Of a stretch of 64,000 nucleotides of DNA, positions 1 to 29,124 are shown in pieces (positions within the stretch are counted from its first letter, which is position 1; each line of letters starts with the position of its first letter). The position numbers were made by a program, and so were the translations under genes. The stretch is from an uncultured Thermoleophilia bacterium (GTDB taxonomy: Bacteria > Actinomycetota > Thermoleophilia > UBA2241). Below the pieces are notes generated by a model, which was not told the origin of the DNA, did no database searches, and was given only the letters and a program-made list of their open reading frames with translations. Location: the NCBI GenBank assembly GCA_963715985.1, contig CAVQSP010000014.1, positions 608,001 through 672,000 of the forward strand, in the 5' to 3' direction.

Positions 1-1
1 C

Positions 2-1669
2 CGTCCGCTGGACGAAGAGGCGACTGCGCAGGTCCTCCTTGGGTTGCGCGATCAGCAGGTCGAGGCGGTCGGTGTGTGTCTGCTCTTCTCGACGATCAAT
101 CCCGCGCACGAGCTGCGCGTTGGCGAGCTTCTGGCCGAGCTCGTGCCGGAGATCCCCTTCACGCTCTCGCACAAGCTCAACCCGATCCTCAGAGAGTACC
201 GTCGGGCGTCGTCGACGGTCATCGATGCCTCGCTGAAACCGGTGATGAGCCAGTATCTTCACGGCCTCGAGGCCAGACTCCGGGAGGTCGGCTTCCGCGG
301 TCGACTCCTCGTCTCCACCTCCAACGGTGGCGTGCTCGACGCCGCGGAAGTGGCGGAGGCTCCCATCCATGCTCTCAATTCCGGTCCCGCCATGGCTCCC
401 ATCGCCGGCCGCGCTATCGCCGCGTCGGAGACCGGTCACGCCACGGTCGTCGTCGCCGATACGGGCGGGACGACCTACGACGTGAGCGTCGTCCAGCGGG
501 GCCGCATCCCGACGACCGTGGAGACCTGGGTCGGCCCGAGGTACGTCGGTCACATGACCGGCTTCCCTTCGGTCGACGTGCGGAGCGTCGGCGCCGGTGG
601 CGGCAGCATCGCCTGGGTCGACACGCATGGCCTCCTGCACGTGGGCCCGCAGAGCGCAGGCGCCGACCCGGGCCCCATCTGCTACGGCCGCGGCGGTGAC
701 AGACCCACGCTCACCGACGCTTGCCTGGTCCTGGGGTATCTCGACCCCGCCTACTTCCTCGGCGGCGCCATGAAGCTCGAGGTGGGCGCTGCCCGGGAGG
801 CGCTGAAGGACCTGGGCGGCCAACTCGGCCTGAAGGCAGAGCCGGCCGCCCATGCGGTCGTACAGGTGGCCACCGAGAACATGGTGCAGGCGATAGAGTC
901 GATCACGATCGAGCAGGGTATCGACCCCACAGTCGCCGTGCTCATCGGCGGCGGCGGCGCGGCCGGCTTGAACGCCTCCATCGTGGGCAGAAGGCTCGGC
1001 TGCGACACCGTGATCATCCCGCAGCTCGGCGGTGTGCTGAGCGCCGTGGGGATGCTGCTGTCCGACCTCGTGGCCGAGTATGCCGCCACGTTCGTGGCGA
1101 CCAGCGACGACTTCGACCTGGCCGGCGTCAACGAGATCCTCGCCGGGCTGGAGGCGCGCGCCCGCGCCTTCATCGAGAGGGCCGGCCAGGACTCGGTCTC
1201 ATCGTCGCTGACATTCTCGGCTGACGCGCGCTATCCGGAGCAGATCTGGGAACTGCCGGTGACCTTGAGCAAGGGCCGGTTCGCGGATCTGGACGACGTG
1301 GAAGCGCTCCGTCGGGGGTTCCATGAGATCCATCACGAAGTGTTCGCAGTTAGCGACCCCCTGTCCTCGATCGAGATCGTCGGCTGGCGTGTGCGCGCCG
1401 AGTGCCGACTGCGAGAGAGAGACCTCAGCGTCCCGCTCGAAGAGGGCTCGGGGCCAGGCCACGGGGCGCGAGAGGCCTGGTTCCCAGACGTGGGGACGCT
1501 GTCCACCCCGGTCGTGGAGTTCTCCAGCCTGACGGAGAACGAACCGAGACTGGGGCCGCTCCTGGTCGAGTCCCCGCTGACGACCGTGGTCGTGGAACCC
1601 GGAACGGTGGCGGTGCGCTCCGGGCTCGGGAACCTTCTCCTGAGCCGCAACGACCCTGGACTCACCTGA
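2..1669 (+). CDS. Hydantoinase/oxoprolinase family subunit A (HyuA/OplA-like, ATP-dependent); 5' end lies outside the window
   Basis: Frame is open from base 2. Motifs EYRRASSTVIDA, SGPA, DTGGTTYDV, GAGGGSIAW, VGPQSAGADPGPICYGRGG, PTLTDA. Confidence 0.92.
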   Translation, partial: RPLDEEATAQVLLGLRDQQVEAVGVCLLFSTINPAHELRVGELLAELVPEIPFTLSHKLNPILREYRRASSTVIDASLKPVMSQYLHGLEARLREVGFRGRLLVSTSNGGVLDAAEVAEAPIHALNSGPAMAPIAGRAIAASETGHATVVVADTGGTTYDVSVVQRGRIPTTVETWVGPRYVGHMTGFPSVDVRSVGAGGGSIAWVDTHGLLHVGPQSAGADPGPICYGRGGDRPTLTDACLVLGYLDPAYFLGGAMKLEVGAAREALKDLGGQLGLKAEPAAHAVVQVATENMVQAIESITIEQGIDPTVAVLIGGGGAAGLNASIVGRRLGCDTVIIPQLGGVLSAVGMLLSDLVAEYAATFVATSDDFDLAGVNEILAGLEARARAFIERAGQDSVSSSLTFSADARYPEQIWELPVTLSKGRFADLDDVEALRRGFHEIHHEVFAVSDPLSSIEIVGWRVRAECRLRERDLSVPLEEGSGPGHGAREAWFPDVGTLSTPVVEFSSLTENEPRLGPLLVESPLTTVVVEPGTVAVRSGLGNLLLSRNDPGLT

Positions 1670-1700
1670 CGTCATGGCACCCGACAGTGCGGAGGTCCAC

Positions 1701-3491
1701 ATGAAGGCCGAGGCGTCCAAGTCCTCATCGTCCACGATCGACGGCGTGAAGCTCGCCATCATGAGCAGCCGGATGGACGGGATCGTTACGCGCATGACGA
1801 ACACGCTGCTGCGCACGGCCCGTTCGGGCGTGCTGGCGGTCGCCAAGGACTTCTCCTGCTGCCTCCTCGCCGCGAACGGGGACCTTCTCGCGATGGCCGA
1901 AGCAGAGCCCATCCACGTCCTCAACAGCCACTTGCTCGGGCGCGCGCTGAACGAACTTCAGCCGGTACTCAAGCCGGGAGACGCCTTTCTCAACAACTCG
2001 CCCTATCACGGGAACACGCACGCCGCCGACTGGTCGGTGCTCGTCCCCATCTTCGATGACGACGGCAGGCACCGCTGCACGGCGGTGGTGAAGGGACATC
2101 AGGCGGACTGTGGGGATTCCATTCCGACGACGTATCACAGCGCCGCCAAGGACGTGTACGAGGAGGGGGCTCTCATCTTCCCGTGCGTGAAGGTCCAGAG
2201 CGACTACGAGGACAACGAGGACATCGTCCGCATGTGCAGGATGCGGATCCGCGTACCGGACCAGTGGTGGGGCGACTACCTCGCTCTCATCGGCGCCGCG
2301 CGCATCGGAGAGCGCGAGATGGTCGAGTTCGGGCGCGAAGTGGGGTGGGACGTCATCGACAGCTTCATCGCCCAGTGGTTCGACTACAGCGAGCGCACGA
2401 TGATCGAAGCGGTCAGAGGCCTCACCGCAGGGCGGACCACCGTGCGCGGGTGGCATGACCCCGTCGAGGGTCTCGATGCTCTGCCGGTCAACGTCAGCGT
2501 CGGGGTGGATCCCGAGAACGCCATGATCGAGGTCGATCTGCGCGACAACATGGATTGCCAGCCGTTCGGGCTGAACCTGAGCGAAGCCTGTTCGAGTGGC
2601 GCCGCTCTGGCAGGCGTCTTCTGCGGGATCTGCGCGGACATCCCGTTCAACGGCGGCAGTCTGCGACGAGTCCGGGTCCACCTTCGCGAGAACTGCATCG
2701 TGGGCATCCCTCGCCATCCCTTCAGCTGCTCGGCGAGCACCACCAACCTGGCGGACCGCGTGGCCAACACGGTGATGCGGGCCATGGCCGACCTCGGGGA
2801 CGGCATGGGGCGGGCGGAATACGGCCTCGTCTTGCCGCCCTCCATCGGCGTGATCTCGGGGAACGACCCCCGCAGTGGCGGCGCCCCGTTCGTGGACGAG
2901 GTCTTCCTGCACGGCCTTACGGGAGGTGCCGCGACTCCGCACGCGGACGGCTGGCTTACCGCGACCGACGCCGTCACGTTGGGCATGGGTCTTCTGGACA
3001 GCGCCGAGATCGACGAGATCGCCTTCCCCATCCGGGTACTTGAGCAGCGCCTGATCCCCGACAGCGAAGGGCCGGGCAGGTTCTGTGGCGCGCCTGGAGC
3101 CATGACCGTGATGGAAGCCGTGGATACCACCATCGAGATCTGGTACGGCAGTGACGGCACGGTGAATCCCGCGCTGGGCGCACGGGGCGGCGGACCCGGC
3201 AGTCGAGCGGAAGCCTGGAAGCGCCTAAGTACCGGCGAGATCGTGCAGGCGCCGGCGCACGGCCTGGTGAAGCTCGAGCCGGGCGAGGCGATGATCTCCA
3301 AGAGCTGCGGCGGCGGCGGCTACGGCTCGCCCCTCGAACGCGACCCGCAGCGGGTGCTGCACGACGTCCTCGAGGGCCGTGTCTCTGTGACGCGGGCGCG
3401 AGAGGTGTACGGGGTCGCTGTGCTCGATGGGCTCGTCGACCAGGCTGCCACGGAGGACCTGCGCTCAGGCATGCAGGGTGAGGCCACCTGA
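1701..3491 (+). CDS. Hydantoinase B/oxoprolinase family subunit
   Basis: Motifs DFSC, NSPYHGNTHAAD, GHQADCG, EEG, C-terminal GGGGYGSPLERDP. GGAGG at 1691-1695 precedes ATG 1701 (alternative start 1674). Confidence 0.92.
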   Translation: MKAEASKSSSSTIDGVKLAIMSSRMDGIVTRMTNTLLRTARSGVLAVAKDFSCCLLAANGDLLAMAEAEPIHVLNSHLLGRALNELQPVLKPGDAFLNNSPYHGNTHAADWSVLVPIFDDDGRHRCTAVVKGHQADCGDSIPTTYHSAAKDVYEEGALIFPCVKVQSDYEDNEDIVRMCRMRIRVPDQWWGDYLALIGAARIGEREMVEFGREVGWDVIDSFIAQWFDYSERTMIEAVRGLTAGRTTVRGWHDPVEGLDALPVNVSVGVDPENAMIEVDLRDNMDCQPFGLNLSEACSSGAALAGVFCGICADIPFNGGSLRRVRVHLRENCIVGIPRHPFSCSASTTNLADRVANTVMRAMADLGDGMGRAEYGLVLPPSIGVISGNDPRSGGAPFVDEVFLHGLTGGAATPHADGWLTATDAVTLGMGLLDSAEIDEIAFPIRVLEQRLIPDSEGPGRFCGAPGAMTVMEAVDTTIEIWYGSDGTVNPALGARGGGPGSRAEAWKRLSTGEIVQAPAHGLVKLEPGEAMISKSCGGGGYGSPLERDPQRVLHDVLEGRVSVTRAREVYGVAVLDGLVDQAATEDLRSGMQGEAT

Positions 3492-3599
3492 ACGTCTGCC
3501 GGCGTGTGTTGCGGTCGCCACCGCCCAGGGCAGGCGGAGGGAGCGCCTGCTCCGGTGTAGGAGTCCGTCGGGGCCGGGTCGCGCCCGCCCGACCGAACC

Positions 3600-3662
3600 T
3601 TGACCGAAGGTCAGACGGTCCGTAGTATCCAACGCATATACCGGGCGTATCGTCAGCGTATG
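3600..3662 (+). promoter_or_regulatory. Sigma-A-type promoter (TTGACC-17-TAGTAT) overlapped by four 11-bp-phased GTAT-like boxes (putative operator)
   Basis: -35 at 3600-3605, -10 at 3623-3628. Boxes at 3625, 3636, 3647 and 3658. A near-identical arrangement occurs at 17575-17636. Confidence 0.7.
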
Positions 3663-3938
3663 TGTGACGGTCGCTGCTCGCTCCTCTCGCGACGAGTGGC
3701 CGCGCTCGGCCCTGACCGGGGCAGAAGATCAGATCCTGCGAACGGCGGTGATCTTGAGAGCGACCTGGATCGTAGTGCGAACGCATTCACGGAGCGCCGC
3801 CATCCTGTCGCGTCGCGACAGCCTCGGGGGCGGCGGTCGTCTGGCCGCCGCCGCACATCCAAACGTTGTCTCCGGCTTCACTTCGAACCATCATCGCTAT
3901 GTACCGGCACGTGGGCATGACACGCAAGGGGGAAGCGC

Positions 3939-5585
3939 ATGAAGTCAGGGAGTGACAAAGAAGGCATCGGCAAGCGGAACCTGACACGGCGGGAGCTGCT
4001 GCAGGCCGGCGCGGTCGCGGGGCTCGGCGCCGGGCTGATCGGCACGGGTCTCGGGGCGGCGGGATGCGGGAGCAGCGACGACGGTGGCGCGAGCGCGTCG
4101 CCGTCGGCGTCGGGAGCGGCGGGCGCGCTCAAGCCCGGCGGCATCTTCACCCTCGCCACCGATCAGATGTTCCCTAAGGACAACCTCAACCCGCTGACCA
4201 ACACCACCGACGGCATCGATGCGCTCGAAGGGATGCTTCGTGAGGGGCTCGTGACCTACGACTTCACCTTCACGCCGCAGCCGCGACTGGCCGAGAGCTG
4301 GGAGTTGACCCCGGATTCCATGGAGTACACGTTCCATATCCGGCCCAACGTGACGTGGCACGACGGCACGCCGTTCACTGCGAGGGACGCCAAGTGGTCT
4401 CTCGACAGGGTCATGTCGCCAGACGGCGGGTCGGGCATGATGGACCGTCTCAGCACGAGCATCGAGAATGAGGGCGTCATCGTCGTCGACGACATGACGC
4501 TCAAGCTCAAGCTGAAGCGGCCGGACTCGCTGCTCTTGCTCGCACTCTCCAACCAGCAGTGTTACTTCACCAAGGAGAACAGCACGACGGCCGACTTCGA
4601 GAAGGGCATCGGGACCGGTCCCTTCATGCTGAAGTCATGGAACCCGGGCCAGAGCTACGAGGTCGATAAGTACCCCGGCTACTGGATGAGTGGGTACCCC
4701 GTCCTGGATGGAGTGCGCGGCGTCCAGATCCCCGAGGCCTCCACGAAGCTGCAGTCCGTGGCCTCCGGCTCGTCTAGCGTCACGCAGATCGCCTTCGACC
4801 AGCTCGCCGTGGTCAACGCCAACTCCAACCTGCAGATCACCCCGTACGAGAAGGGCATCACCTACAACGTGGTCTGCGATACCACCGTGAAACCGTTCAG
4901 CGACCCGAGCGTGCGCCGGGCCATCAAGCTCTCGCTTGACCGCAAGGTCGTGATGGACGTCGCCTACGCGGGCCAGGCCTTCGCCTCGCCGGACGCCTGG
5001 GTCGCCATGGGCGACCCCTTCATGGACGACGCCCTCACAACGGCCGCCACCACGATGGACCGGGCGAAGGCTGCGGAACTGATGACCGCCGCCGGCTACC
5101 CGGACGGCATCGACCTGACGCTCAAGGCGCCCGGCGATCCTCTGCACGGCAACTTCGCCCTGGCGATCGTCGCCGGTCTCAAGGGCTCGCCCTTCCGCGT
5201 CACGGCCAAGCAGATCCCGGCCGCGACCTACTGGGACACGGTGTGGATGAAGGACCCATTCTGCGTGGACGACTGGAACCGCCGTCACCCCGTCGAGTGC
5301 GCCGCCCTCAACATGTACCCGAACGCACCCTGGAACGAATCCAAGTGGAAGAACGAGGAGATGGCCGCGCTGCTCGACAAGGCCTACGCCTCGCAGGGCG
5401 ATGCTCTCACGCAGGCCACCACCGACGTGTGCAACTTCATGCGCGCCGGCGGTGAGGGCGAAGGCGGCAGCGGCGAGATCGTCCCCGCCTACCTGAACCG
5501 CCTGTGGACCGCCTTGAAGACGACCAAGGTGGTGCCCTGGACGTTCTCCATGCTCGACACGCGGTACTGCGGGTTCTACGCGTGA
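3939..5585 (+). CDS. ABC transporter substrate-binding protein, family 5 (Opp/Dpp-like); Tat-exported lipoprotein
   Basis: Twin-arginine TRRELL, lipobox AAGC, LAESWE...YTFHIRPNVTWHDGTPFTARD, GTGPF. Confidence 0.92.
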   Translation: MKSGSDKEGIGKRNLTRRELLQAGAVAGLGAGLIGTGLGAAGCGSSDDGGASASPSASGAAGALKPGGIFTLATDQMFPKDNLNPLTNTTDGIDALEGMLREGLVTYDFTFTPQPRLAESWELTPDSMEYTFHIRPNVTWHDGTPFTARDAKWSLDRVMSPDGGSGMMDRLSTSIENEGVIVVDDMTLKLKLKRPDSLLLLALSNQQCYFTKENSTTADFEKGIGTGPFMLKSWNPGQSYEVDKYPGYWMSGYPVLDGVRGVQIPEASTKLQSVASGSSSVTQIAFDQLAVVNANSNLQITPYEKGITYNVVCDTTVKPFSDPSVRRAIKLSLDRKVVMDVAYAGQAFASPDAWVAMGDPFMDDALTTAATTMDRAKAAELMTAAGYPDGIDLTLKAPGDPLHGNFALAIVAGLKGSPFRVTAKQIPAATYWDTVWMKDPFCVDDWNRRHPVECAALNMYPNAPWNESKWKNEEMAALLDKAYASQGDALTQATTDVCNFMRAGGEGEGGSGEIVPAYLNRLWTALKTTKVVPWTFSMLDTRYCGFYA

Positions 5586-6628
5586 CGGAAGTCCCCGACC
5601 CTTACTTCTCGGAGACTGCGCTAGCGCCCCAGGAGGACGCGACCGCCGCCCTCCCCCCCGACAAGGGGGGAGCGGCGGCGGTCATCTGGCTGTTCGTGCG
5701 TTCGCGGTTCCTGCCGGCGCTCATCACGCTCTGGCTGATCTCGATCATCGTCTTCGCCTCGACGCACGTGTTGGGCATCAACGTGGCCCGCCGCGTGCTC
5801 GGGCGCGAGGCCACCCCCGCTCAGCTGGAGGCGTTCAGCAAGGCGCACGGCCTGGACAAGCCCATCTTCGACCAGTACACGTCGTGGCTCTCGGACTTCG
5901 TCAAGGGCGATTGGGGCATGTCGGCGGCAAGCGTGCGGCCAGTGAGCGAGATCGTGGTGCCCCGCACGATCAACACGCTGATCCTCGCGCTGGCGGCCAT
6001 CATCATCGCGCTGCCGATCTCGATCATGTTCGGCATCTATCTGGCCAGACCGGGCTCGCGGGCACGTGAGCTGATCCTCTCGATAGGCAACGTCTCTCTG
6101 GCGGCCATCCCCGTCTTCGTCATCGGCATCCTTCTGATCTACGGGCTCTCGGTGAAGCTGGGATTGACGCCGGTGGACAGCATGGGCATGTCCTTCGGGA
6201 CGTGGAACGACAAGGTGGCGGCGTTCATCCTGCCCACCATCACCCTCGTCATCTCCCTGCTGCCGCACATCTCCCGCCTCACGCAGGTCTCGGTGCGTGA
6301 GACCATGACGACGCCGTACGCGCGGGCGGCAGTTCTCCGCGGACTCACGCGCCGCACGATCACCTACAGGCACCTGATGCCCAACGCCGCCGGGCCCATC
6401 ATCAACGTGGTCGCCCTCGACCTCATCTGGCTCATCGGCGGCGTCATCATCGTCGAGAACGTCTTCGGCTTTCCCGGCCTCGGGACCCTGCTCGTCGAGT
6501 CCATCGGGGCCGGCGACCTGCTCGTGGTCCAGGCGGTCGCCATGATCTGCGGCGTCCTGTTCATCGGCATCGGCATCGCCGCGGACATGCTCGTGACGCT
6601 GTTCAACCCCAGACTGAGGAATGGCTGA
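5582..6628 (+). CDS. Peptide/nickel-type ABC permease (DppB-like)
   Basis: GLDKPIFDQY, EAA-like loop YARAAVLRGL, VENVFGFPGLG. GTG start overlaps the upstream stop (GTGA). Confidence 0.9.
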   Translation: MTEVPDPYFSETALAPQEDATAALPPDKGGAAAVIWLFVRSRFLPALITLWLISIIVFASTHVLGINVARRVLGREATPAQLEAFSKAHGLDKPIFDQYTSWLSDFVKGDWGMSAASVRPVSEIVVPRTINTLILALAAIIIALPISIMFGIYLARPGSRARELILSIGNVSLAAIPVFVIGILLIYGLSVKLGLTPVDSMGMSFGTWNDKVAAFILPTITLVISLLPHISRLTQVSVRETMTTPYARAAVLRGLTRRTITYRHLMPNAAGPIINVVALDLIWLIGGVIIVENVFGFPGLGTLLVESIGAGDLLVVQAVAMICGVLFIGIGIAADMLVTLFNPRLRNG

Positions 6629-7520
6629 GATGAGCACCGTGGAGCAGGTGGTCACGACCGTCCCGACGTACGTACCCGGGCGCCAGAGCCTCTGGCGCAG
6701 TGTGCTGCGCACCACGGAGGGCAAGATCGGCATCGGGCTGGGGGCGTTCATGATCGGCCTCATCGTGCTGGGTGCCATCTTCGGGCCCACGACGGACTAC
6801 AACGCCGCGATGCCCGGCGCCGGCTCCTCGGCCGCGCACTGGTTCGGCGCGGACACGCTGGGACGCGACGTGCTGAGTCGCTTCCTTGCCGGCGGCACGA
6901 CGGTGTTGCTCATCCCGCTCATCGCGGTGACGCTTTCACTGCTCATCGGCGGCAGCCTCGGGCTGTTCGGCGCCTACTGGGGTGGCTGGCCGGACGTCGT
7001 CATCGCCAAGGTCTTCGACGTCATCCTCACGTTGCCGCCGCTGCTGATCGTGCTGGTGATCATCGGCGGTCTCGGGGCCTCCAACACCGTCCTGATCATC
7101 ACTGTGGCGCTGGTGTACGCACCCGGCCTGGGGCGGGTGGTGCGAGGCTCGGCGCAGTCGGTGATCGTCAATCCCTACGTGCTCTCCGCGCAGGCGCGTG
7201 GGGAGCGCGATCTCACGATCATCTTCCGCGAGGTGCTCCCCAACGTCTCCGGGCCCACCCTGGCCGAGTTCGGCCTGCGGCTCACCTACGGCATCCTGTT
7301 CGTGGCGACGCTCAGCTTCCTCGGTCTGGGCGTGCAGCCGCCCAGCCCCGACTGGGGACTCATGGTCGCGGAGAACCGCGGCCTGATCACAGTGGCGCCC
7401 TGGGCCACCCTGCTCCCGGCGCTCGGCATCACCGCGCTGGCCGTGGCGCTGAACCTGACTGCCGACGCGCTCTCCAGAGTCCTGGCGGGCGACGACCTGA
7501 GCCGGCTGGCGGTGATATGA
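6621..7520 (+). CDS. Peptide/nickel-type ABC permease (DppC-like)
   Basis: HWFGADTLGRDVLSR, LSFLGLGVQPPSPDWG. Confidence 0.92.
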   Translation: MAEMSTVEQVVTTVPTYVPGRQSLWRSVLRTTEGKIGIGLGAFMIGLIVLGAIFGPTTDYNAAMPGAGSSAAHWFGADTLGRDVLSRFLAGGTTVLLIPLIAVTLSLLIGGSLGLFGAYWGGWPDVVIAKVFDVILTLPPLLIVLVIIGGLGASNTVLIITVALVYAPGLGRVVRGSAQSVIVNPYVLSAQARGERDLTIIFREVLPNVSGPTLAEFGLRLTYGILFVATLSFLGLGVQPPSPDWGLMVAENRGLITVAPWATLLPALGITALAVALNLTADALSRVLAGDDLSRLAVI

Positions 7521-9445
7521 GCGCCGCCGCCAGCGAGCACGCCGGCGTCCGCCCGGCCGGGTCGTGCGACACCACGCGCCTCAGTCCTGACGGAGCCGCG
7601 CTCGTCGTCGAAGACCTCAGCGTCGGCTACCATCAGAAGGACGGCGGCGTGCTGCGTGTGGTCGCCAACGTCGATCTCAAGCTGTTCCCCGGCCAGGTGC
7701 TGGGACTCGCCGGCGAGTCGGGCTGCGGCAAGAGCACGGCCGCCCTGGCAGCCGTCGGCTACCGGCATCCCGGCGGCGTCATCCTCAGCGGCCGGTCGCT
7801 CCTCGGCGACGTCGAGTTGCTGGAGATGAAGCCGGCCGCCCTGCGCCTGCTGTGGGGCGGCCAGGTCGCCTACATCTCGCAGAACGCCGGGATGTCGCTG
7901 AACCCGGCGCTGACGATCGCGCGGCACTTCGACGAGGTGCTGAGCCGGCACGCGGGCCTGCACGGGTCCGCGGCCGCCGCGCGCGAGCTGGAACTGCTCA
8001 CCTCCGTCCAGCTGCCGGATCCCAAAGGATCCCTCCTGAGGTATCCGCATCAGCTGAGCGGCGGTCAACAGCAGCGCGTCTCGCTGGCGCTGGCCTTCGC
8101 CTGCCGTCCGGCCGTCCTCATCCTCGACGAGCCCACCACCGGGCTCGACGTCACCACGCAGACCTACATCACGGCCCTGCTGCAGACGCTCATCGCCGAG
8201 ACTCAAGTGGCGGTCATGTACGTGAGCCACGACCTGGCCCTGCTCTCGACCGTGTCCAACGACGTGGCCGTCATGTATGCGGGCGAGATGGTCGAGCGCG
8301 GGCCGGTGGCCGAGATGGTCAGGGCGCCGCTGCACCCGTACACCAACGCCCTGTTGCGCGCGGTGCCCAGCGCCCGCGCCCGGCAGTCCATCGCCGGCAT
8401 CGCCGGCGAGCCCCCCGTGAGCGTCTGCGACGACTGCTGTTCCTTCGCGCCGCGCTGCCCCTACGTGGAGGAGCGCTGCCGGGCACAGCACCCTGACAGC
8501 AGGCAGATCGAGCCACTGCGCACGTCGCGCTGCTTCCGCACTGAAGAGGTGCGCGACGAGCTGCGCATCGTCGTCGACATCGACGAGCGTGTCTCTGCGG
8601 CCCAGGTACGGTCGGCGGAGGAGGGGCGCCCATCTGACCTCCTCACGGTGGAGGGCGTGTCCTGCTACTACGGGTCGGGACGCCGCCGTTTGGCAGCCGT
8701 CAAGGACGTCTCGCTGCACCTCTCCGACGCCGAGGTGCTCGGCATCGTCGGGCTGAGCGGCAGCGGCAAGTCCACGCTCCTGCGGGCGATCTCCGGGATC
8801 CTGGAGGACTACACGGGGACGATCTCCCTGCGCGGCGAGTCGCTCGCCCACCGTGCCGTCAAGCGCCCGCGACAGCTGCGCCGACAGGTGCAGATCGTCT
8901 TTCAGGACCCTGCCTCGTCGCTCAACCCGCGGCACACCGTCAACCAGATCATCGCGCGCGCCGTCCGGCTGTTCCGCGAGGACGTGCCCCACGACAAGAC
9001 GGCGGACACCGTGGCGGAGCTCCTGGAGAGCGTGAAGCTGTCGCGCTCGTTCCTGCCCCGGTATCCATCCGAGCTCAGCGGTGGGCAGCAGCAGCGCGTC
9101 GCCATCGCCCGCGCCTTCGCCGCGCGACCGAGCCTGCTGCTCTGCGACGAGGTCACCTCGGCCCTGGACGTCTCCGTCGCCGCCACGATCATCGAACTGT
9201 TGCGCGACCTCACGAGCCAGTCCGGGACGGCCGTGCTGTTCGTCAGTCACGACCTGGCGGTGGTGCGCACCCTGGCCGACAGGGCCATCGTGATGCGCGA
9301 CGGGCGGGTGTGTGAGGAGGGGTCGACGGAGAAGCTGTTCCGCGCGCCCGAGCACCCCTACACGATCGAGCTGCTCGAGTCGATCCCGGACATCGCGGAC
9401 GTGCGCGCAGGCAGACGGCTGTTGCCGAGCGACTCCCCGGTGTGA
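7517..9445 (+). CDS. Fused double ABC ATPase (DppD/DppF-like)
   Basis: Two Walker A motifs (GESGCGKS, GLSGSGKS), two LSGGQQQR signatures, HPY motifs and a Cys-rich linker. Confidence 0.93.
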   Translation: MSAAASEHAGVRPAGSCDTTRLSPDGAALVVEDLSVGYHQKDGGVLRVVANVDLKLFPGQVLGLAGESGCGKSTAALAAVGYRHPGGVILSGRSLLGDVELLEMKPAALRLLWGGQVAYISQNAGMSLNPALTIARHFDEVLSRHAGLHGSAAAARELELLTSVQLPDPKGSLLRYPHQLSGGQQQRVSLALAFACRPAVLILDEPTTGLDVTTQTYITALLQTLIAETQVAVMYVSHDLALLSTVSNDVAVMYAGEMVERGPVAEMVRAPLHPYTNALLRAVPSARARQSIAGIAGEPPVSVCDDCCSFAPRCPYVEERCRAQHPDSRQIEPLRTSRCFRTEEVRDELRIVVDIDERVSAAQVRSAEEGRPSDLLTVEGVSCYYGSGRRRLAAVKDVSLHLSDAEVLGIVGLSGSGKSTLLRAISGILEDYTGTISLRGESLAHRAVKRPRQLRRQVQIVFQDPASSLNPRHTVNQIIARAVRLFREDVPHDKTADTVAELLESVKLSRSFLPRYPSELSGGQQQRVAIARAFAARPSLLLCDEVTSALDVSVAATIIELLRDLTSQSGTAVLFVSHDLAVVRTLADRAIVMRDGRVCEEGSTEKLFRAPEHPYTIELLESIPDIADVRAGRRLLPSDSPV

Positions 9446-9487: not shown

Positions 9488-10600
9488 GTGAGCGTGCCTA
9501 GCCGCACGATCGTGGTCGTGGGCGGCGACACCGCCAGCTTGCTCGTCGCCGCCTGGCTCGCCGCCGCCGGCCACCAGATCGTCCTCTGGGAACTGCGCGA
9601 CGGCGCGATGGGCCCGGCGGGCGCGAGCGCACCGGGCGAGCTCATGCTCAGCGTGGCAGGGCGCGATACGGCGGTCGTGTTCGCGGGGGTCACGACCGAC
9701 GCCTTCGAGGCGCTGGCCGCCGGCGACGTGGTGGTCACCTGCGCGCCGCCGCACGCCCAACAGGCCTTCGCCGACGCGGTGCTGCCCCTCGTGGAGCCGA
9801 GGCATCTGCTGGTCCTGCCGGCCGGCGGCCTCGGCAGCCTCGCGTGCGCGAAGTGGCTGCGCGACCGGGGGCGCTGGGAGCTGCCGACCTTCGCCGAGAG
9901 CGACACGATGCCGGTCCTCGGCGATCTCGAGGGCCCGGCACGCCTGCGTGTCGACGCGGTCGCGTCCCGCTTGGGGTTCGGCGTCTTCCCGGCCGAGCGC
10001 ACCGCTGCCGCCCGGGACCCCCTTGTCGATCTGTTCCCCGGGGCCAGGGCTCACGTGCACGTCCTCGCCGCGGCGCTGGCCGGGGTCGAGCGTTTCGTGC
10101 GCGCGCCGGCGCTGGTGATGAACGCCGGCGCTTCGGAACGTGGCGGGCCGCCGGCGTCGCTGCTGGCCGACGGGTTCACCCGGGAGGTCGCGCGAGTGGC
10201 CGAGGCGCTTGACGGCGAGCGCTGCGCGCTCGCCCGGGCCCTCGGCCTTGATCTGCCGCCGGCCGCCGAAGCACTCTGCGAACGTGGTCTCAGCCCCGGC
10301 GGTGATCTCTGGGCCGCCGTTCACGGCAGCTTCGCGCTGACGCGCCCGCCGGCCGCCGGCGTGGTGCCGGCAGATCTCCAGGCCGACGACGTGTCCTTCG
10401 GAGTGCGCCTCTGGGTCGAGCTTGGCGGCGCGCTCGACGTGCCGATGCCCGTCGCGGGCGCGCTACTGACGCTGCACGATGCCGCCCGCCCGTCGACTGG
10501 ATGGGCCGGCCGGACACTCGAGGACCTCGGTCTGGCCGGCCTGAGCGGCGATGCCCTGCAGCGCTTTCTGACCACCGGGACCGGCGAACCGGACGCCTGA
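9488..10600 (+). CDS. Opine (octopine/nopaline) dehydrogenase-family protein with degenerate motifs
   Basis: N-terminal Rossmann-like IVVVGG...AAWLAAAGHQIVLW, GVFPAERT, DGERCALARALG, DDVSFG...GGALDVPMP. GxGxxG and the HP motif are altered. Confidence 0.7.
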   Translation: MSVPSRTIVVVGGDTASLLVAAWLAAAGHQIVLWELRDGAMGPAGASAPGELMLSVAGRDTAVVFAGVTTDAFEALAAGDVVVTCAPPHAQQAFADAVLPLVEPRHLLVLPAGGLGSLACAKWLRDRGRWELPTFAESDTMPVLGDLEGPARLRVDAVASRLGFGVFPAERTAAARDPLVDLFPGARAHVHVLAAALAGVERFVRAPALVMNAGASERGGPPASLLADGFTREVARVAEALDGERCALARALGLDLPPAAEALCERGLSPGGDLWAAVHGSFALTRPPAAGVVPADLQADDVSFGVRLWVELGGALDVPMPVAGALLTLHDAARPSTGWAGRTLEDLGLAGLSGDALQRFLTTGTGEPDA

Positions 10601-12349: not shown

Positions 12350-12351
12350 CG

Positions 12352-16521: not shown

Positions 16522-16603
16522 CCGGCGCGCGATCCATCCGCGTGCTGCCCCTCCGTCCGTTGGCGGCCCTCGCTGCCGCCGGTGGGTCGAGCAAGGACGG
16601 GAC

Positions 16604-17578: not shown

Positions 17579-17636
17579 CGGGTGAGCGCATGACTCTTAG
17601 TATCTCGCTCGTATACACGCTGCATCCGGAGATATC
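17575..17636 (+). promoter_or_regulatory. Sigma-A-type promoter (TTGACG-17-TAGTAT) with 11-bp-phased GTAT-like boxes
   Basis: -35 at 17575-17580, -10 at 17598-17603. Boxes at 17600, 17611, 17622 and about 17632. Confidence 0.7.
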
Positions 17637-17731: not shown

Positions 17732-18688
17732 ATGAACCAGTACATGTGGGCCTACGCCGACCCGTATCAGTGGATGGAGCGCACGGCGAAGTTCCCGCCG
17801 ATGATCGTCACCTGCGCGGTGGACGGCGGCATCCAGGGCAAGGAGAGTCATCCGGCGCTTCCCGAGCTGCCCGACGAGATCGCCCTGGAGTGCCAGGCGG
17901 CCTACGAGGCCGGCGCATCGATCGTGCACATCCACGGTCGGGACCCCGACAACTTCACCAACTGCACCGATGACCCCGAGGTGTACCGGGACATCCTTGG
18001 ACGCGTGCGCGAGAAGTGCCCCGAGCTGATCATCAACATCACCACAGGCGGCGGTCCCACGACCACCGACGAGGGCCGAGTGGCCATCCTCGACGCCGGG
18101 CCAGAGATGGCGACCCTGAACCTCGGTCCGGACATGGAGCGCTTCGAGCTCGCGGAACGTAAGCCGCCGCTGCCGCACCCCCGCGAGGCGATGGTCGTCG
18201 ACATGGTCATGCCGTTCACCTACGGCTTCATCGACCGGCTCGCCGGCGTGATGCTGGAGAAGGGCATCAAGCCGGAGCTCGAGATCTACCAGCCCGGCCA
18301 GTACTGGGTGAGTCGCGGGCTGGCGGAGCGGGGCCTCATCAAGCCTCCGTACTCGCACCAGTTCGTCATGGGCGTGCAGACGGCCATCTACCCGACACCC
18401 TGGAACGTGCTGGCGATGCTGAGCGAACTCCCCGACGACTCGGTGTTCACGGTCGCCGCCATCGGCAAGTTCCAGTGGCCCCTCATCACCATGGGCATCA
18501 TCCTCGGCGGCAACGTGCGCGTGGGCCTCGAGGACAACCTGTACGAGCGACGCGGCCGCAAGCTGACGGGGAACGGCGAGGCGGTACAGAAGGCCGTGCG
18601 CCTCGCCCGGGAGTTCGGCCGCGAGATCGCCACGCCGGCCCAGGCGCGCGAGATGCTGGGGCTGTCGGCCACACCAAGCAGCTACTGA
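17732..18688 (+). CDS. Beta-keto acid cleavage enzyme (BKACE/DUF849; 3-keto-5-aminohexanoate cleavage family)
   Basis: IVTCAVDG, EAGASIVHIHGR, TTGG, KPELEIY, GGNVRVGLEDN, ATPAQAREMLGL. Confidence 0.93.
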   Translation: MNQYMWAYADPYQWMERTAKFPPMIVTCAVDGGIQGKESHPALPELPDEIALECQAAYEAGASIVHIHGRDPDNFTNCTDDPEVYRDILGRVREKCPELIINITTGGGPTTTDEGRVAILDAGPEMATLNLGPDMERFELAERKPPLPHPREAMVVDMVMPFTYGFIDRLAGVMLEKGIKPELEIYQPGQYWVSRGLAERGLIKPPYSHQFVMGVQTAIYPTPWNVLAMLSELPDDSVFTVAAIGKFQWPLITMGIILGGNVRVGLEDNLYERRGRKLTGNGEAVQKAVRLAREFGREIATPAQAREMLGLSATPSSY

Positions 18689-18703: not shown

Positions 18704-19943
18704 ATGGAGGACGAAGAAGTCACGCGAGCTCTTCGAGCGTCTCGCGAAGGTCATGCCCGGTGCGAGCACCCGTACCGTCACTCACTACGACCCCTTCCCG
18801 ATCGCGCTCGAGCGCGGACAGGGCTGCCGTCTCTGGGACGTCGACGGCAACGAGTACATCGACCTGCTCAACAACTACACCGCCCTCGTGCACGGTCACA
18901 ACCACCCGGCCATCGTTGAGGCCCTCGCTCGCACGGCGACGGGGGCGCTTATCCGCGGCCGTGCCGGCGCCCATCGAGCTGCAGGGCGAGTTGGCGTAGC
19001 GCGCTGTGCGCGCGCACGCCCTCCATCGACCGCGTGCGCTTCACCAACTCGGCCTCGGAGGCCGTGATGATGGCTGTCCGCGTAGCCCGCGCCTACACCG
19101 GGAAGGACGACTTCATCATGCCGGCCAACGGCTATGGCGGGGGCTGGGACCAGGTGATGCTGGCCGGCACAGACGAGGAGCATCCAGAGGGCTCCCAGGG
19201 CAACGTACCGGCAGGCATCCCGAAGATCCTGACCGAGGTCGTCCACTTCGTGCGCTTCAACGACCTCGGGCACTTGGAGCAGGTGCTGGACGACGCACGG
19301 CCCCACCACCGCGGCCGTCCTGCTCGAGCCGATCCTTGGACACACCGTCGTGCCCGGCGACCCCGACTTCGTCCGTGCCGCCCTACGCCTGGCGCACGAG
19401 CACGGAGCACTCCTGATCCTGGACGAGACCATCACCTCGCGCCTGTACGTGGGCGGCTGGCAAGCCGAACACGGCATTGAGGCCGACCTGACCACTCTCG
19501 GCAAGACGATCGGCGGCGGCACACCGGTCGGTGCGTTCGGCGGCAAGGAGCACGTGATGCGCATCCTCGACCCGCGCGCGGACGACGCCCTCGCCGCGCA
19601 TGGGACCATGAACGGCAGCCCGCTGTGCATGGCCGCCGGCTGCGCCAGCCTCGACCTGCTGACGCAGGAGGCCATCGACCGCATCAACGGCATGGGCGAC
19701 TTCCTCACCTCTGAGCTCGACGTCATCGGCCGCGAGGCCGGCGTGCGCGTGCACAACTACGGTTCTCTGCTCCAGGTCATGGCCCCCGACATCCTCGCGT
19801 TCCACCGAGCCTGCCTCGAGGAAGGGCTGTACATCGCCCCGCGCGGCAGCATGAACCTGTCCACCGTGATGGACGACGAAGTCCTCGGGGAGATCGCTGC
19901 GGCCTGGGCACGCGCCGTGGAGCGGACCAGCACCGCGCACTGA
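18704..19943 (+). CDS. Class III aminotransferase (glutamate-1-semialdehyde aminomutase-like); four +1 frameshifts
   Basis: Reconstructed METKKSRELFERLAKVMPG..., WDVDGNEYID, RFTNSASEA, AAVLLEP, ILDETIT, DLTTLGKTIGGG. Shifts near 18709, 18945, 18997 and 19295. May be a pseudogene if the indels are real. Confidence 0.8.
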
Positions 19944-20001
19944 AGGTCCGGCCCACGAGCAGTCCGTCCAGTCCAGAACTGACGAAGGAGAGCGCGTCAC
20001 G

Positions 20002-21447: not shown

Positions 21448-21520
21448 CGCCGGCGCGGGCCTGGGCCGAGGGCCAGGACTGAGCGCCGGCGCCGGAGCAA
21501 GATCTTCGAGGAGGCGGAAC

Positions 21521-22372
21521 GTGGCGAAGAAGAGCGTCTTCGACCTGCACGAGATGAAGCGCGCCGGCGAGCAGATCGCCTGGCTCACCGCCTACGACTA
21601 CCCGACGGCGCAGTTCGAGGAGGCGGCCGGCGTCGACATGATCCTCGTCGGCGACTCGCTGGGCATGTGCGTCTACGGCTACCCCGGCACCGTCCCGGTG
21701 ACGATGGACCAGTGCCTCGTGCACAGTGAAGCGGTGCGCCGCGGCGCCCCGGACACCTTCGTCCTCGGCGACATGCCGCTGGGCAGCTACCAGGCCTGCG
21801 ACGCAGACGCCGTGCGCAACGCCATCCGCTTCCTGAAAGAGGCGAACGTCGACGCCGTCAAGCTCGAGGGCGGCGTGCGCACGCTCTCCCGCGTCACGGC
21901 GATCCTCGCGGCCGGCGTCGCCGTCTGCGGCCACATCGGGCTCACGCCGCAGTCCTCGGGGCAGCTCGGCGGGCACAAGGCGCAGGGCCGCACCCTCGCC
22001 TCGGCCCAGCTCGTCGTCGAGGACGCCCGCGCCCTCTACGAGGCCGGCGTCCAGCTCCTCCTCGTCGAGGCCGTGCCCCCCGAGGTCGCCGCCTTCATCG
22101 CCCGCGAGCTGCCCATCCCCGTGCTCGGCATCGGGGCGGGGGCGGACGTTGACGGGCAAGTGTTGATCGTCAGCGACGTTCTCGGCACCTTTCAGGCGTT
22201 CACGCCGAAGTTCGTCAAACGGTACGCCGACCTCGCCGAGGTCGCGACGTCGGCCTTGCGGGAGTACGTCTCCGACGTGAGGAGCGGAGCCTTTCCGGAG
22301 GAGACTCACTGCTACCGCATGCTGGACGGCGAGCACGAGCGGTTCGCCGCCTGGGCGCGGGAGTCCCGATGA
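21521..22372 (+). CDS. panB: 3-methyl-2-oxobutanoate hydroxymethyltransferase
   Basis: LTAYD, ILVGDSLG, GDMP, VKLEGG, GHIGLTPQ, GIGAG...DGQVL. Confidence 0.93.
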   Translation: MAKKSVFDLHEMKRAGEQIAWLTAYDYPTAQFEEAAGVDMILVGDSLGMCVYGYPGTVPVTMDQCLVHSEAVRRGAPDTFVLGDMPLGSYQACDADAVRNAIRFLKEANVDAVKLEGGVRTLSRVTAILAAGVAVCGHIGLTPQSSGQLGGHKAQGRTLASAQLVVEDARALYEAGVQLLLVEAVPPEVAAFIARELPIPVLGIGAGADVDGQVLIVSDVLGTFQAFTPKFVKRYADLAEVATSALREYVSDVRSGAFPEETHCYRMLDGEHERFAAWARESR

Positions 22373-23595
22373 TCTCGCGCACGGTCGCACCGGGGTTCCT
22401 TGCGGCGCAGCGCGTCGACCGCCTCGGTACGGAGCTGGTCTTCGAGGTGGCGGAGGAGGCGAAGGCGCTGGCCGCACGTGGCCGCGCCGTGTATCCCTTC
22501 CACATGGGTGAGCTGGACTTCGCGACCGCCGACCACATCGTCGAGGCCTGCGCCCGGGCGCTCAGGGACGGCAAGACCAAGTACACGCCCAACGGCGGCC
22601 TGCCCGCGCTGAGAGAGGCGCTGGCGGAGGACGTCGCCGCAGAGCGCGGAGTCGTCTACGGCCCGGACAACGTCGCCATCCAGCCCGCCGGCAAGCCCGT
22701 GATCGGCAAGTTCCTGCTGACGCTCATGGACCCCGGAGACGAGGTGCTCTACCCGAACCCCGGGTTCCCCATCTACAGCTCGCTCATCGACTTCTTCGGC
22801 GGCGTCGCCGTGCCGTATCCGTACCTCGAACGCGCGGACGGCTTCCACATCGACCTCGACAGGCTTGAGAGCAGCATCACCCCGCGCACGCGCCTCCTCA
22901 TCCTCAACGACCAGCACAACCCCACAGGCGGCGAGTGCACGCCCCCCGAGCAGGCACGCCTCGCGGAGCTCGTGCTCCGCCACAACCTGTTCGTGCTCTC
23001 CGACGAGGCCTACTTCGCGATCCGCTACGAGGGTGAGAGCCGGTCCATCGTGTCGCTGCCCGGCATGGCCGAGCGGACCGTCATCCTCTACACCTTCGGC
23101 AAGAAGTACGCGATGACGGGGTTCCGCCTGGGCGCTGCCATCGGACCCCGCCCGGTGATCGATGTGATCGTCCGGCTGAACGTCAACTGGGAGGCCTGCT
23201 GCAACGAGTTCGCACAGTACGGCGCGGTGGCGGCGCTGACCGGTGACCAGGCGTCCCGTCTGCGCATGCTCGACGTGCTGCGCGAGCGGCGGGACGCGGG
23301 CGCTGCGATCCTGGACGACACGCCGGGCATCGTTTGCCGGCGACCCGACACCACGTTCTACCTGTACCCCAACGTCACCGGCGCAGTGCGCCTGTGCGGT
23401 TGTGACGACCACGAGACGTTCCGGCGCCTGGTGCTCGAGAAGACGGGCGTGTCGTTCTGTACGCGGCCGCAGTTCGGCACGCCGCTGCCCGGGGAGCGCG
23501 ACTACTTCCTGCGCATCTCCTACTCCGGCCTCACGACTGCACTCATTGAGGAGGGCCTGGGCGAGCTGCGGTCGTTCTTGCGCACCTTGTCCTGA
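22369..23595 (+). CDS. Class I/II PLP aminotransferase (AspAT-like)
   Basis: GELDF, TKYTPNGGLPALR, PNPGFPIY, HNPTG, SDEAY, KKYAMTGFRLG. Confidence 0.9.
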   Translation: MISRTVAPGFLAAQRVDRLGTELVFEVAEEAKALAARGRAVYPFHMGELDFATADHIVEACARALRDGKTKYTPNGGLPALREALAEDVAAERGVVYGPDNVAIQPAGKPVIGKFLLTLMDPGDEVLYPNPGFPIYSSLIDFFGGVAVPYPYLERADGFHIDLDRLESSITPRTRLLILNDQHNPTGGECTPPEQARLAELVLRHNLFVLSDEAYFAIRYEGESRSIVSLPGMAERTVILYTFGKKYAMTGFRLGAAIGPRPVIDVIVRLNVNWEACCNEFAQYGAVAALTGDQASRLRMLDVLRERRDAGAAILDDTPGIVCRRPDTTFYLYPNVTGAVRLCGCDDHETFRRLVLEKTGVSFCTRPQFGTPLPGERDYFLRISYSGLTTALIEEGLGELRSFLRTLS

Positions 23596-23802
23596 CCACC
23601 ATCCCGAATCCGGCACCTCGCGACCTCGAAGCACCGCCGGTCAGGGCCGGCTGCGATCCGGCGGCGACCACAGGACACACCAGGTCGAACCTATGGTTAG
23701 CCTCTGTTGCATCGGACTCCCTGGGGAGCGACGCTGTGAGGCGTCAAGTGGAGCCACTGCCCCGGGCAGCTCGTGCGGGGCCGAGCGCAGAGGAGACGGT
23801 CG

Positions 23803-27699: not shown

Positions 27700-27797
27700 C
27701 TCGTCGTCCACACCCGGGCCGCGCTCCCGTCACGGCTTCGGGGCTGAGGCGTTGTCCGTGGGTCACGATGCTGGAAGACTGAGCGTTCGCGAGCCCC

Positions 27798-29124
27798 ATG
27801 GACGACACTGACCTCACATCATCGTCCGACCTCACCGGCGACCTCCTGGCCGCACGGCCCCTTCGCGAGCTCGCCGCGGGGGACGTGCGCTTTCGCGCGA
27901 TCGTCGGCGTGTCCTTCGACGCCTACTACGATTGGGACGTCGGCAGCGGCGACAACTACTTCTCGGAGCACCTCGACGACATGCTCGGTCAGCCCTCGGG
28001 GTCGGCGCGTCGCTGGTTCTATGCCTGGGTCGACCTCGTGCATCCGGACGACAGGGCCCGCGTCCTGCGCTCTCTCGCGGACGCGTTCCGGCACTCGCCG
28101 ACGTGGAAGGAGGACTACCGGCTGCGCCGCGCCGACGGCACCTACGTCCGCGTCCGGGATACCGGTGTCGTGGTACGTGACCGCGAGGGCCGTCCCGCAC
28201 GCATGCTGGGCACCATCCGCGACGTCACGGCCGAGTCCGCCGCCGCACAGGCGCTCGAGCAGGCGGCGGAGTTGCACCGCACCCTGTTCCGCGGCGCGGC
28301 CAATCCCGCGGTCCGCGTCGATCGCGAGGGCCGCTACCTTGACGCCAACGAGGCGGCCCTCGCCTTCTGGGAGCCGCAGCGCCGACGACATGCGGGCGCA
28401 CCTCTTCTGGAACGACTTCCCGCCCGAGCTCCAGGAGCTCGTCGCACGCGCCTTCTCGTCGGAGGCCCGCGTCGAAGCGGAGGTCGTGCTGGACGTGTAC
28501 GGCTCGCGGCGCACCCTGATCGTCACGGTGGTCCCCTGCCGCATCGGCGGGCAGGACTCCTTCTTCTGCCTGTGCACCGACATCACGTCCCACAAGCTCC
28601 TGGAAGATGAGCTGCACGACACGAACACGGCTCTTCGCGTCGTGCTGAGACAGGCCGGCGAGGACACGCTCGAGCTCGAACGCCGCGTCGTGGCGAATCT
28701 GGAGCTCCTCGTGCTGCCCACCCTGGACCGGCTGGAGCGGCAGCTGCGCGCCACGCCGGAGGCCGAGTTCGTGGACGTGCTTCGGCAGAACCTGGCGGAG
28801 ATCCTGCGCCCGTTCGCGACGCGCCTCGCAGCGCCGGAGGACGGCGCCTCGGCGCTCACCCGCCGTGAGCTCGAGGTGGCCGGCTACGTGCGCACCGGCA
28901 AGACCACCGACCAGATCGCCGCGATCATGCGCCTCTCACGCTCGGCCGTGGAGTTCCACCGCGGCAACATCCGCCGCAAGCTGGGGCTCAAGCGCGGCGA
29001 TCCGCACCTCGGCGCCGCGCTCTCCACGCTGCTCACGGGTGACGGGACGACCGTGTCGCAGCCACCCCGGACCCGATCGGACGAAGGCGAGAAGAGCTCG
29101 ACGATCGGCTCGCGCCCCTCCTGA
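27798..29124 (+). CDS. PAS-PAS-LuxR family transcriptional regulator; +1 frameshift at about 28374
   Basis: PAS domain (VHPDDR...YRLRRADG), second PAS (DREGRYLDANEAA), LuxR HTH (LTRRELEVAGYVRTGKTTDQIA...VEFHRGNIRRKLG). Confidence 0.85.

Follow-up and report, generated by a model that had tools for sequence, protein, structure and literature searches.

The first 29,124 nucleotides of a 64,000-nucleotide stretch of contig CAVQSP010000014.1 (C14:608001-672000, C14 denoting the contig; the whole stretch is herein called the window) hold a cluster of genes that, on balance, is probably a conserved and jointly regulated unit for the catabolism of an N-methylated compound, amino-acid- or peptide-like, taken up from outside. 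The comparison of loci described below supports the view that a gene of the MtmB type and one of the MttB type are parts of one conserved, co-regulated unit. The window comes from a wetland actinobacterium of the Thermoleophilia type, whose genome (4.35 Mb in 22 contigs, ~70% G+C) is 88.8% complete with 7.3% contamination. Genes were identified by Pfam profiles, NCBIfam equivalog cut-offs and matches to solved relatives in the Protein Data Bank (PDB); only PanB and the pyrroline-5-carboxylate-dehydrogenase part of PutA pass a curated NCBIfam equivalog cut-off, and the other cluster genes are named at family level only. An initial annotation, made from the sequence alone, had proposed a B12-dependent, pyrrolysine-free N-demethylation cluster linked to (hydroxy)proline catabolism, and every gene that it named is recovered with Pfam on the + strand between positions 1 and 29124. 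By its gene content the cluster appears to be a corrinoid methyltransferase system, and the predicted chemistry of its MtmB homologue gives it its interest.

Conservation and membership of the cluster

Orthologues were sought with a profile of 16 aligned MtmB orthologues against genome and metagenome contigs, and then by tblastn with the window proteins. Eleven comparison loci were analysed in detail (L042, L043, L044, L046, L116, L117, L119, L192, L193, L194 and L196); the short contigs L118 and L120 (little beyond corrinoid protein and MtmB), L123 (which ends inside MtmB) and L146 were excluded from these eleven. At least seven other genomes or contigs share the order ADP-forming acyl-CoA synthetase (ACS), GntR, peptide/opine-type importer, opine-dehydrogenase-like gene (OpDH), M19 or M20 hydrolase, corrinoid protein (Corr), MtmB, proline-racemase-family enzyme (ProRac), BKACE (an enzyme cleaving beta-keto acids), class III aminotransferase (AT3), MttB and class I/II aminotransferase (AT12). 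The initial annotation had named beforehand, as grounds for giving up the cluster, that the gene set be conserved in no other genome; the order is kept in other genomes, and the proposal is not refuted on this count.

In L194, from the same genus and in the same slot between rluD and pyrR, the genes read ACSa-ACSb-GntR-SBP-Perm-Perm-ATPase-OpDH-M19-Corr-MtmB-ProRac-BKACE-AT3-MttB-AT12 (SBP, the SBP_bac_5 protein), followed by pyrR. The order of L046 is that of L194, followed by PutA and PanB. L044 has BKACE and GntR on the opposite strand and a 3-hydroxyisobutyrate-dehydrogenase-like gene in place of OpDH; L196 has an extra IlvD and a 3-hydroxyacyl-CoA-dehydrogenase-family gene; and the shorter fragments L116, L117 and L193 agree in order. 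BKACE, AT3 and MttB are adjacent in that order in the window and in six of the 11 comparison loci, the enzyme with a Cys/Thr pair recurs at 72-80% identity in seven of the 11, and the importer is kept at 63-85% identity in L042, L044, L046, L192 and L194.

Co-occurrence of the two methyltransferases, which the initial annotation had proposed as a check, holds in a sample of the class. Among 400 other genomes of the class, evenly drawn, five carry the MtmB orthologue (61-80% identity; one was seen by tblastn only, as the gene is frameshifted there), and in all five the MttB orthologue lies on the same strand at a distance of 2.4-8 kb; these genomes are kin, and the counts, which are not independent, overstate the support. 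The MttB orthologue (82-86% identical) is present in six of the 400.

Further observations weigh against a single regulon. L042 is a close variant but has no racemase-family gene. L192 keeps all genes except M19, Corr and MtmB, which means that MttB can use a corrinoid protein from another locus; a single molecule need not be the substrate of both methyltransferases. No MttB lies within 6.3 kb in L119 (Corr-MtmB, GntR, ACS genes, an aminotransferase and BKACE) or within 8 kb in L043 of the Chloroflexota (a fused ACS, a racemase-family gene, BKACE, Corr and MtmB), and in L146 an MtmB of 60% identity is followed by no cluster gene in 4.7 kb downstream. The cluster is patchy, for a first search of 24 congeneric species gave no MtmB orthologue (best 41-42% identity), and an MttB neighbour is not rare in itself in a genome with ~89 MttB-family matches. 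AT3, with at least three frame changes in 1.2 kb, may be truly decayed in this strain, and the order of the pathway steps given further below is conjecture. More distant MtmB relatives (57% identity or less) are accompanied only by Corr, often with tandem MtmB copies.

Crowding of this kind also raises the thought that the genes are chance neighbours: 35 B12-binding matches add to the MttB-family ones in 4.35 Mb, and PanB, PutA and the pyr genes are housekeeping genes. Such an origin is scarcely credible, as it is contradicted by the synteny; the order is kept in several genera, the operator is unique and orthologues 80-86% identical lie in the same place.

The features of the cluster are as follows.

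2-1669 (HyuA, cut at its 5' end) and 1674-3491 (HyuB), + strand: hydantoinase/oxoprolinase family (Pfam)
3939-5585 (SBP_bac_5), 5504-6628 and 6621-7520 (permeases), 7517-9445 (fused double ATP-binding-cassette (ABC) ATPase), + strand: peptide/opine/nickel-type importer (Pfam)
9488-10600, + strand: OpDH-like NAD(P) oxidoreductase (Pfam Octopine_DH)
10638-11645, + strand: M19 dipeptidase-family hydrolase (Pfam)
11690-12349, + strand: Corr, with B12-binding_2 and B12-binding domains (Pfam)
12352-13780, + strand: MtmB homologue without pyrrolysine (PF05369); intact orthologues have 461 aa
13783-15453, + strand: thiamine diphosphate (ThDP) enzyme, acetolactate-synthase-like (Pfam, NCBIfam)
15490-16521, + strand: ProRac-family enzyme with a Cys/Thr pair, of the trans-3-hydroxy-L-proline dehydratase type
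16487-17578, + strand: CysK-like pyridoxal phosphate (PLP) enzyme, a strain-variable insertion
17732-18688, + strand: BKACE (PF05853)
18714-19943, + strand: AT3, of the glutamate-1-semialdehyde (GSA) aminomutase/beta-transaminase kind; intact orthologues have 411-413 aa
20002-21447, + strand: MttB-superfamily methyltransferase without pyrrolysine (PF06253)
21521-22372, + strand: PanB (passes the NCBIfam equivalog cut-off)
22369-23595, + strand: class I/II aminotransferase AT12, with 57-77% identity in L192, L193 and L194
23773-27699, + strand: PutA (PutA_N, Pro_dh and Aldedh domains)
27798-29124, + strand: PAS-LuxR regulator, specific to the window

Judged by recurrence, the predicted core consists of the two ACS subunits, the GntR/FCD regulator, the importer, the OpDH-like or another dehydrogenase, the M19 or M20 hydrolase, Corr-MtmB, the Cys/Thr enzyme, BKACE, AT3, MttB and AT12. 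ACS genes accompany the cluster in seven of the 11 loci and lie upstream of the window, as does a gene with GntR and FCD domains that is also found in L044, L046, L119, L194 and L196. The hydrolase is of the M19 family in the window, L042, L046, L117 and L194 and of the M20 family (ArgE/DapE kind) in L192, L196 and, as a fragment, L044; this alternation implies that the amide-hydrolysis step is kept. The OpDH-like gene and AT12 are present without having had a place in the pathway first proposed, and that proposal also made no use of the beta-transaminase-like enzyme that accompanies BKACE, of ACS or of GntR.

Other genes that had been counted as members fall outside this core. HyuAB and the CysK-like enzyme are in none of the 11 comparison loci, and the latter is missing even from ~98% identical populations: contigs from four wetland-metagenome runs, which hold about half of the stretch's 31-mers and were also aligned for the frameshift check below, have in three of the four runs a different sequence of 148 letters, without a CysK-like gene, between 16521 and 17658. 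The ThDP enzyme recurs beyond the window only in L117 and L192, and PutA and PanB only in L046. HyuAB, the ThDP and CysK-like enzymes, PanB (probably housekeeping), PutA and PAS-LuxR are best regarded as variable additions or housekeeping neighbours.

Promoters, operators and reading frames

That two operons of the cluster share a promoter/operator design, as first noted, is borne out by the pattern TAGTAT-N7-RTATAC at 3623-3641 and 17598-17616. The two sites are these.

3600-3670, + strand: P1, before the importer; TTGACC (3600-3605), 17 nt, TAGTAT (3623-3628), 7 nt, ATATAC (3636-3641), then GCGTATCG and GCGTATGT repeats
17598-17625, + strand: P2, before BKACE; TAGTAT, 7 nt, GTATAC, then ..TGCAT

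The pattern has only these two matches in the 4.35 Mb genome, none in the reversed control and none in 100 shuffles of the window; as it was derived from its own two sites, it is its conservation in other loci that gives independent support. Before BKACE, all eight loci of that arrangement (the window and seven others) have GTATAC 13 nt after the first base of the -10 box, and the box itself is exactly TAGTAT in six of them (the window, L042, L046, L117, L192 and L196), CAGTAT in L194 and TGGTAC in L193. The operator before BKACE is often a palindrome, TTGTATACAA. The design of the importer promoter is also found before SBP in L194 and before AT12-SBP in L192; it was not seen in L046. A third site, P0, lies before the ACS-GntR operon here and in L194; it consists of TTGACA, 17 nt, a -10-like box and then GCGTATACA. 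The GntR/FCD protein is predicted to bind the GTATAC-type sites. A generic repeat search over positions 1-29500 returned no intergenic repeat; the promoter motif is too short for that search and was found by reading the intergenic regions.

Three genes have broken frames, which the initial annotation did not mention: MtmB, AT3 and PAS-LuxR. MtmB changes frame at ~12833 (one extra base) and a second extra base at ~13724 alters its last residues; AT3 lies in at least three frame segments (18714-18938, 18971-19288 and 19296-19928); and PAS-LuxR changes frame at ~28374 (one extra base). All of the changes are +1, that is, one base too many. Among the metagenome contigs, which derive from ~98% identical populations (one of them differs at 32 positions and has 2 gaps across 1958 bases), two of the four runs lack the extra base at 12833, and the other two have no bridging contig; the extra base is likewise absent at 13723/4 in all four runs, at 18712/3 in three, at 23657 in two and at 28374 in two. 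In the single-base indel rows listed, 11 of 12 have a base in the window and none in the contigs, with the same bias at intergenic sites. Orthologues of MtmB with 461 aa form a graded series from an intact copy of 98% identity down to 57%.

For MtmB and the regulator, bases inserted in the assembly are the likeliest cause of the breaks, because related contigs lack the base, an intact MtmB of 98% identity exists, the changes are biased to +1 and carB is split as well. A programmed +1 frameshift in MtmB was considered and rejected, the orthologues being contiguous over 461 aa and the related contigs being without the base. The split in the essential carB gene (two frames, window 33199-36270 and 35039-36397) is another likely assembly indel, and the comparison metagenome-assembled genomes (MAGs) have similar splits in other genes. 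Real frameshifts, with MtmB, AT3 and the regulator as pseudogenes of a decaying strain, would account for at least five frame changes in three genes over 17 kb, and AT3 lends itself to this account: its inner breaks (~18860-19840) are covered by no contig, and the closest intact protein (411 aa) shares 93% identity with it rather than 98%. Decay is nevertheless very unlikely for the cluster, in view of the uniform +1 direction, the near-identical contigs without extra bases at 12833, 13723/4, 18712 and 28374, the same bias at intergenic sites and the similar splits in carB and the comparison MAGs.

Methyltransferases, pyrrolysine and companion enzymes

The two pieces of MtmB span positions 5-157 and 158-450 of the PF05369 profile, and the intact orthologue P0001 is collinear with Methanosarcina barkeri MtmB (1l2q) over residues 6-454 (E 1e-60). 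The pyrrolysine (Pyl)-dependent M. barkeri enzyme (1l2q/1nth) is of the same fold family, whereas the cluster enzyme has Ala at the position of Pyl202 in an alignment with six other paralogues from the genome and M. barkeri MtmB1 (1l2q); no residue reaches 50% in this column among the 16 aligned orthologues. Corr ends at 12349 and MtmB starts at 12352, and Corr is directly upstream of MtmB in nearly all loci. As first stated, it is the single corrinoid gene in the stretch, one of the genome's 35 B12-binding matches.

A function for an MtmB without Pyl was first reported in 2026, for the tetramethylammonium/choline:corrinoid methyltransferase MtqB/MtqC of Methanococcoides methylutens Q3c; that paper gives the function of other non-Pyl MtmBs as unknown (PMC13044021). 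The cluster MtmB resembles MtqB in being a Pyl-free family member beside its own corrinoid gene. MtqB serves archaeal methanogenesis with coenzyme M (CoM) as acceptor and simple quaternary amines as substrates; the cluster MtmB, in contrast, is encoded in a bacterium, among catabolic genes that include an importer, a hydrolase, a dehydratase, BKACE and aminotransferases.

MttB covers positions 30-493 of 500 of PF06253, with no stop inside C14:627966-629399, and matches the MtgB structure 9yce at E 6e-41. Known non-Pyl MttB systems are, in PMC13080624, MtgB/MtgC/MtgA (glycine betaine), MtpB (proline betaine), MtcB (carnitine), MtyB (gamma-butyrobetaine) and MthB; the same paper names Y97, F356, R312 and H348 as the residues of MtgB that bind glycine betaine. 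At Y97, F356 and H348 the cluster MttB has Met, Ala and a gap, and R312 is Thr with an Arg one position later; the alignment is weak near Y97. Glycine betaine was therefore rejected as its substrate, the MtgB binding motif not being kept. Like the known systems, the cluster MttB is full-length and without an amber codon, and would be expected to move one methyl group from a charged nitrogen to a Co(I) corrinoid protein; unlike them, it has an MtmB-type partner and no methyl-corrinoid:tetrahydrofolate (THF) methyltransferase or RamA in its cluster, and it stands far from MtgB in sequence. Neither a methyl-corrinoid:THF (or CoM) methyltransferase nor a RamA-type activator was found among the window genes; RamA-like genes lie elsewhere in the genome at C11:149598 and C7:11066, and a pterin-binding gene at C11:151314. 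A 395-aa database protein, P0181, combines the Pfam domains of MttB and a class III aminotransferase; either a fusion or an artefact of frameshifts in the adjacent genes could explain it.

The description of the system as pyrrolysine-free is correct for the two cluster enzymes, neither of which has an in-frame TAG, and fails for the organism, which encodes Pyl. A pyl cassette (pylD, tRNA-Pyl and pylS) occupies C13:554252-560053; PylD scores 199 bits (cut-off 150), the PylS C-terminal domain 316 bits (cut-off 178), and tRNA-Pyl, with a CUA anticodon, adjoins pylD. Two MtmB genes in which a single TAG occupies the Pyl position, both with a corrinoid gene after them, lie 10-20 kb past the window end (C14:682146-683495 and 690446-691795). 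A single TAG is present in 12 of the ~89 MttB-family matches, many of which are adjacent fragments in different frames. Four more full-length non-Pyl MtmB paralogues are found at C11:185068, C11:311481, C3:48518 and C14:103360. Apart from one unrelated paper in which both terms occur, no literature linking pyrrolysine with Thermoleophilia was found.

The Cys/Thr pair that had been read in the ProRac enzyme is present, as MCGH at residue 98 and SPTGTG at residue 261, both of which align with their counterparts in 6r76 and 7qpo. Among solved structures the enzyme comes closest to 6r76 (E 8e-112), which we take to be a Thermococcus dehydratase and which is entitled "Proline racemase" in the PDB, and to 7qpo (E 6e-81), the human trans-3-hydroxy-L-proline dehydratase. 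With these dehydratases (6r76/6r77 and 7qpo) it shares the family and the Cys/Thr pair, but it scores 345 bits against the equivalog NF045511, below the cut-off of 540. No description of such dehydratases in a corrinoid methyltransferase context was found in the literature searched. A racemase-family gene beside BKACE-Corr-MtmB in the Chloroflexota record (L043:5676-6728) has a Ser/Cys pair (AMSGT, SPCGTG) instead of Cys/Thr.

BKACE matches Pfam over positions 1-274 of 274 (287 bits), and its orthologues are 78-92% identical. It differs from Kce of lysine fermentation in scoring 243 against an equivalog cut-off of 382 and in having no lysine aminomutase genes beside it. AT3, judged by the intact L046 copy, is nearest among solved proteins to 6k8h, ForI, GSA aminomutases and beta-transaminases. 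Matches of AT12 and AT3 to the guanitoxin enzymes GntC and GntE were examined and dismissed; they are below cut-off and no better than generic transaminase matches. An engineered module of beta-alanine transaminase and BKACE yielding formyl-CoA and acetoacetate from beta-alanine is called new-to-nature in PMC11961710, which reports the activity in more than 20 of 124 BKACEs; in the cluster, BKACE adjoins a beta-transaminase-like gene in the same pairing as in the module there described. The best solved relative of SBP is AgaA (6hlx, E 9e-35), and the sole solved relative of the OpDH-like protein is CENDH (1bg6, E 7e-26), with orthologues at 40-46% identity. PutA scores 707 against TIGR01237 (cut-off 660) and 676 against the PutA equivalog NF008869 (cut-off 747). 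For HyuAB the best NCBIfam match is caprolactamase, far under its cut-off.

Proposed function and genomic surroundings

From the family-level identities, the gene order, the conserved promoters and operators, the absence of Pyl codons and the Cys/Thr pair, all of them observed, we infer the catalytic steps, the pairing of repressor and operator, the use of one corrinoid protein by both methyltransferases and the kind of substrate. A GntR/FCD repressor would act on GTATAC-type operators overlapping P0 (ACS-GntR), P1 (the importer operon) and P2 (the BKACE operon). The peptide/opine-type ABC system would import an N-methylated, carboxylate-bearing amide or peptide-like compound, the amide bond of which would be cleaved by the M19 (elsewhere M20) hydrolase. 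Its N-methyl groups would pass to Co(I) by way of the non-Pyl MtmB homologue, with its own Corr, and of the non-Pyl MttB homologue, and from there to tetrahydrofolate, with a methyltransferase and a RamA-type activator whose genes lie outside the cluster. The backbone would be broken down by the Cys/Thr enzyme of the 3-hydroxyproline-dehydratase type, the OpDH-like oxidoreductase and the two aminotransferases. BKACE would convert a beta-keto acid and acetyl-CoA to acetoacetate and an acyl-CoA, which ACS would turn into the acid and ATP.

A narrower version, close to the initial annotation, starts from (3-hydroxy)proline betaine: MttB would give the N-methyl imino acid, MtmB the free imino acid, the Cys/Thr dehydratase pyrroline-2-carboxylate and the OpDH-like protein, as an imine reductase, proline, which PutA would oxidise. 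We consider this route rather unlikely. The Cys/Thr enzyme is indeed close to solved trans-3-hydroxy-L-proline dehydratases and recurs in seven of the 11 loci, a cyclic betaine has two methyl groups, as many as there are methyltransferases, PutA lies next to the cluster in the window and in L046, and MtpB, of the MttB superfamily, acts on proline betaine according to PMC13080624. However, five of the seven loci with known sequence after MttB have no PutA, L042 does without the dehydratase, and the route leaves no role for the hydrolase, BKACE, the beta-transaminase-like enzyme or the acyl-CoA synthetase. It would need a Pyl-free corrinoid demethylation of a tertiary amine, for which no precedent was found in the literature; the sole characterised non-Pyl MtmB uses quaternary amines, as stated in PMC13044021. 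MttB, moreover, lacks three of the four residues with which MtgB binds glycine betaine, and the Arg that binds the carboxylate is shifted by one position. Literature searches found nothing on corrinoid demethylation of N-methylproline and, among the papers listed, nothing that joins hydroxyproline betaine, betonicine or stachydrine with MttB or corrinoid. An enolase-superfamily gene beside Corr-MtmB in L119 was considered as a hydroxyproline-betaine epimerase and discarded; this found no support, the solved relatives being named only as mandelate-racemase/acid-sugar-dehydratase types.

Two or more routes may instead lie under one regulator, with Corr-MtmB (and M19) acting on one quaternary amine and BKACE-aminotransferase-MttB on another, an arrangement that we find conceivable but doubtful. 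The second substrate could be the betaine of a beta-amino or beta-hydroxy acid, with a beta-keto acid giving acetoacetate and a CoA ester of the betainyl type from which ATP is gained. The M19-Corr-MtmB block can be separated from the rest, as L192 lacks it and keeps the other genes, and BKACE-AT3-MttB is the tightest trio. Variants of the cluster include a dehydrogenase gene, in L196 from the 3-hydroxyacyl-CoA/L-carnitine dehydrogenase family and in L044 of the 3-hydroxyisobutyrate dehydrogenase kind. Carnitine breakdown via BKACE is established, and the NetSyn preprint names it in passing. Both known kinds of non-Pyl enzyme act on quaternary amines, by PMC13044021 and PMC13080624. Against such a division, both operons have the same operator design and the gene order is fixed from genus to genus, which speaks for a single purpose; the racemase-family enzyme and the OpDH-like gene go unexplained here too, and there is no carnitine dehydrogenase equivalog, the best candidate scoring 174 bits against a cut-off of 414.

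A bolder reading seems distinctly unlikely: that the product of MttB, an N-methyl imino or amino acid that is not quaternary, would be demethylated by MtmB, so that a betaine would be fully demethylated without oxygen and without pyrrolysine, and that the beta-transaminase/BKACE/ACS trio would be a natural, ATP-yielding cleavage of beta-amino acids, in the extreme from malonate semialdehyde to formyl-CoA. No literature describing this cluster was found, and the NetSyn preprint on BKACE contexts makes no mention of corrinoid, MttB or betaine. One clade of Pyl-free MtmB is now placed in a conserved cluster, predicted to be singly regulated, with a defined importer, regulator, operator and downstream enzymes. 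The cluster offers an experimental handle on a new substrate for corrinoid-dependent N-demethylation, on whether non-Pyl enzymes go beyond quaternary amines and on how soil and wetland actinobacteria route methylated nitrogen compounds into one-carbon and energy metabolism, with relevance to the supply of methanogenic precursors in wetlands.

The cluster fills the slot between rluD and the pyr operon. Upstream of the window lie the ACS genes and the GntR/FCD regulator, followed by a Liv-type (Peripla_BP_6) importer at C14:602667-607600. This importer and HyuAB sit between the GntR gene and P1, where L194 of the same genus has only 184 bp; together they look like an inserted second unit for uptake and lactam hydrolysis. 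From 29.2 kb on, the window continues with the housekeeping genes pyrR, pyrB, pyrC, carAB, pyrD, gmk, coaBC, nusA, infB, truB, ribF, pnp, dapBA, RNase J and ftsK.

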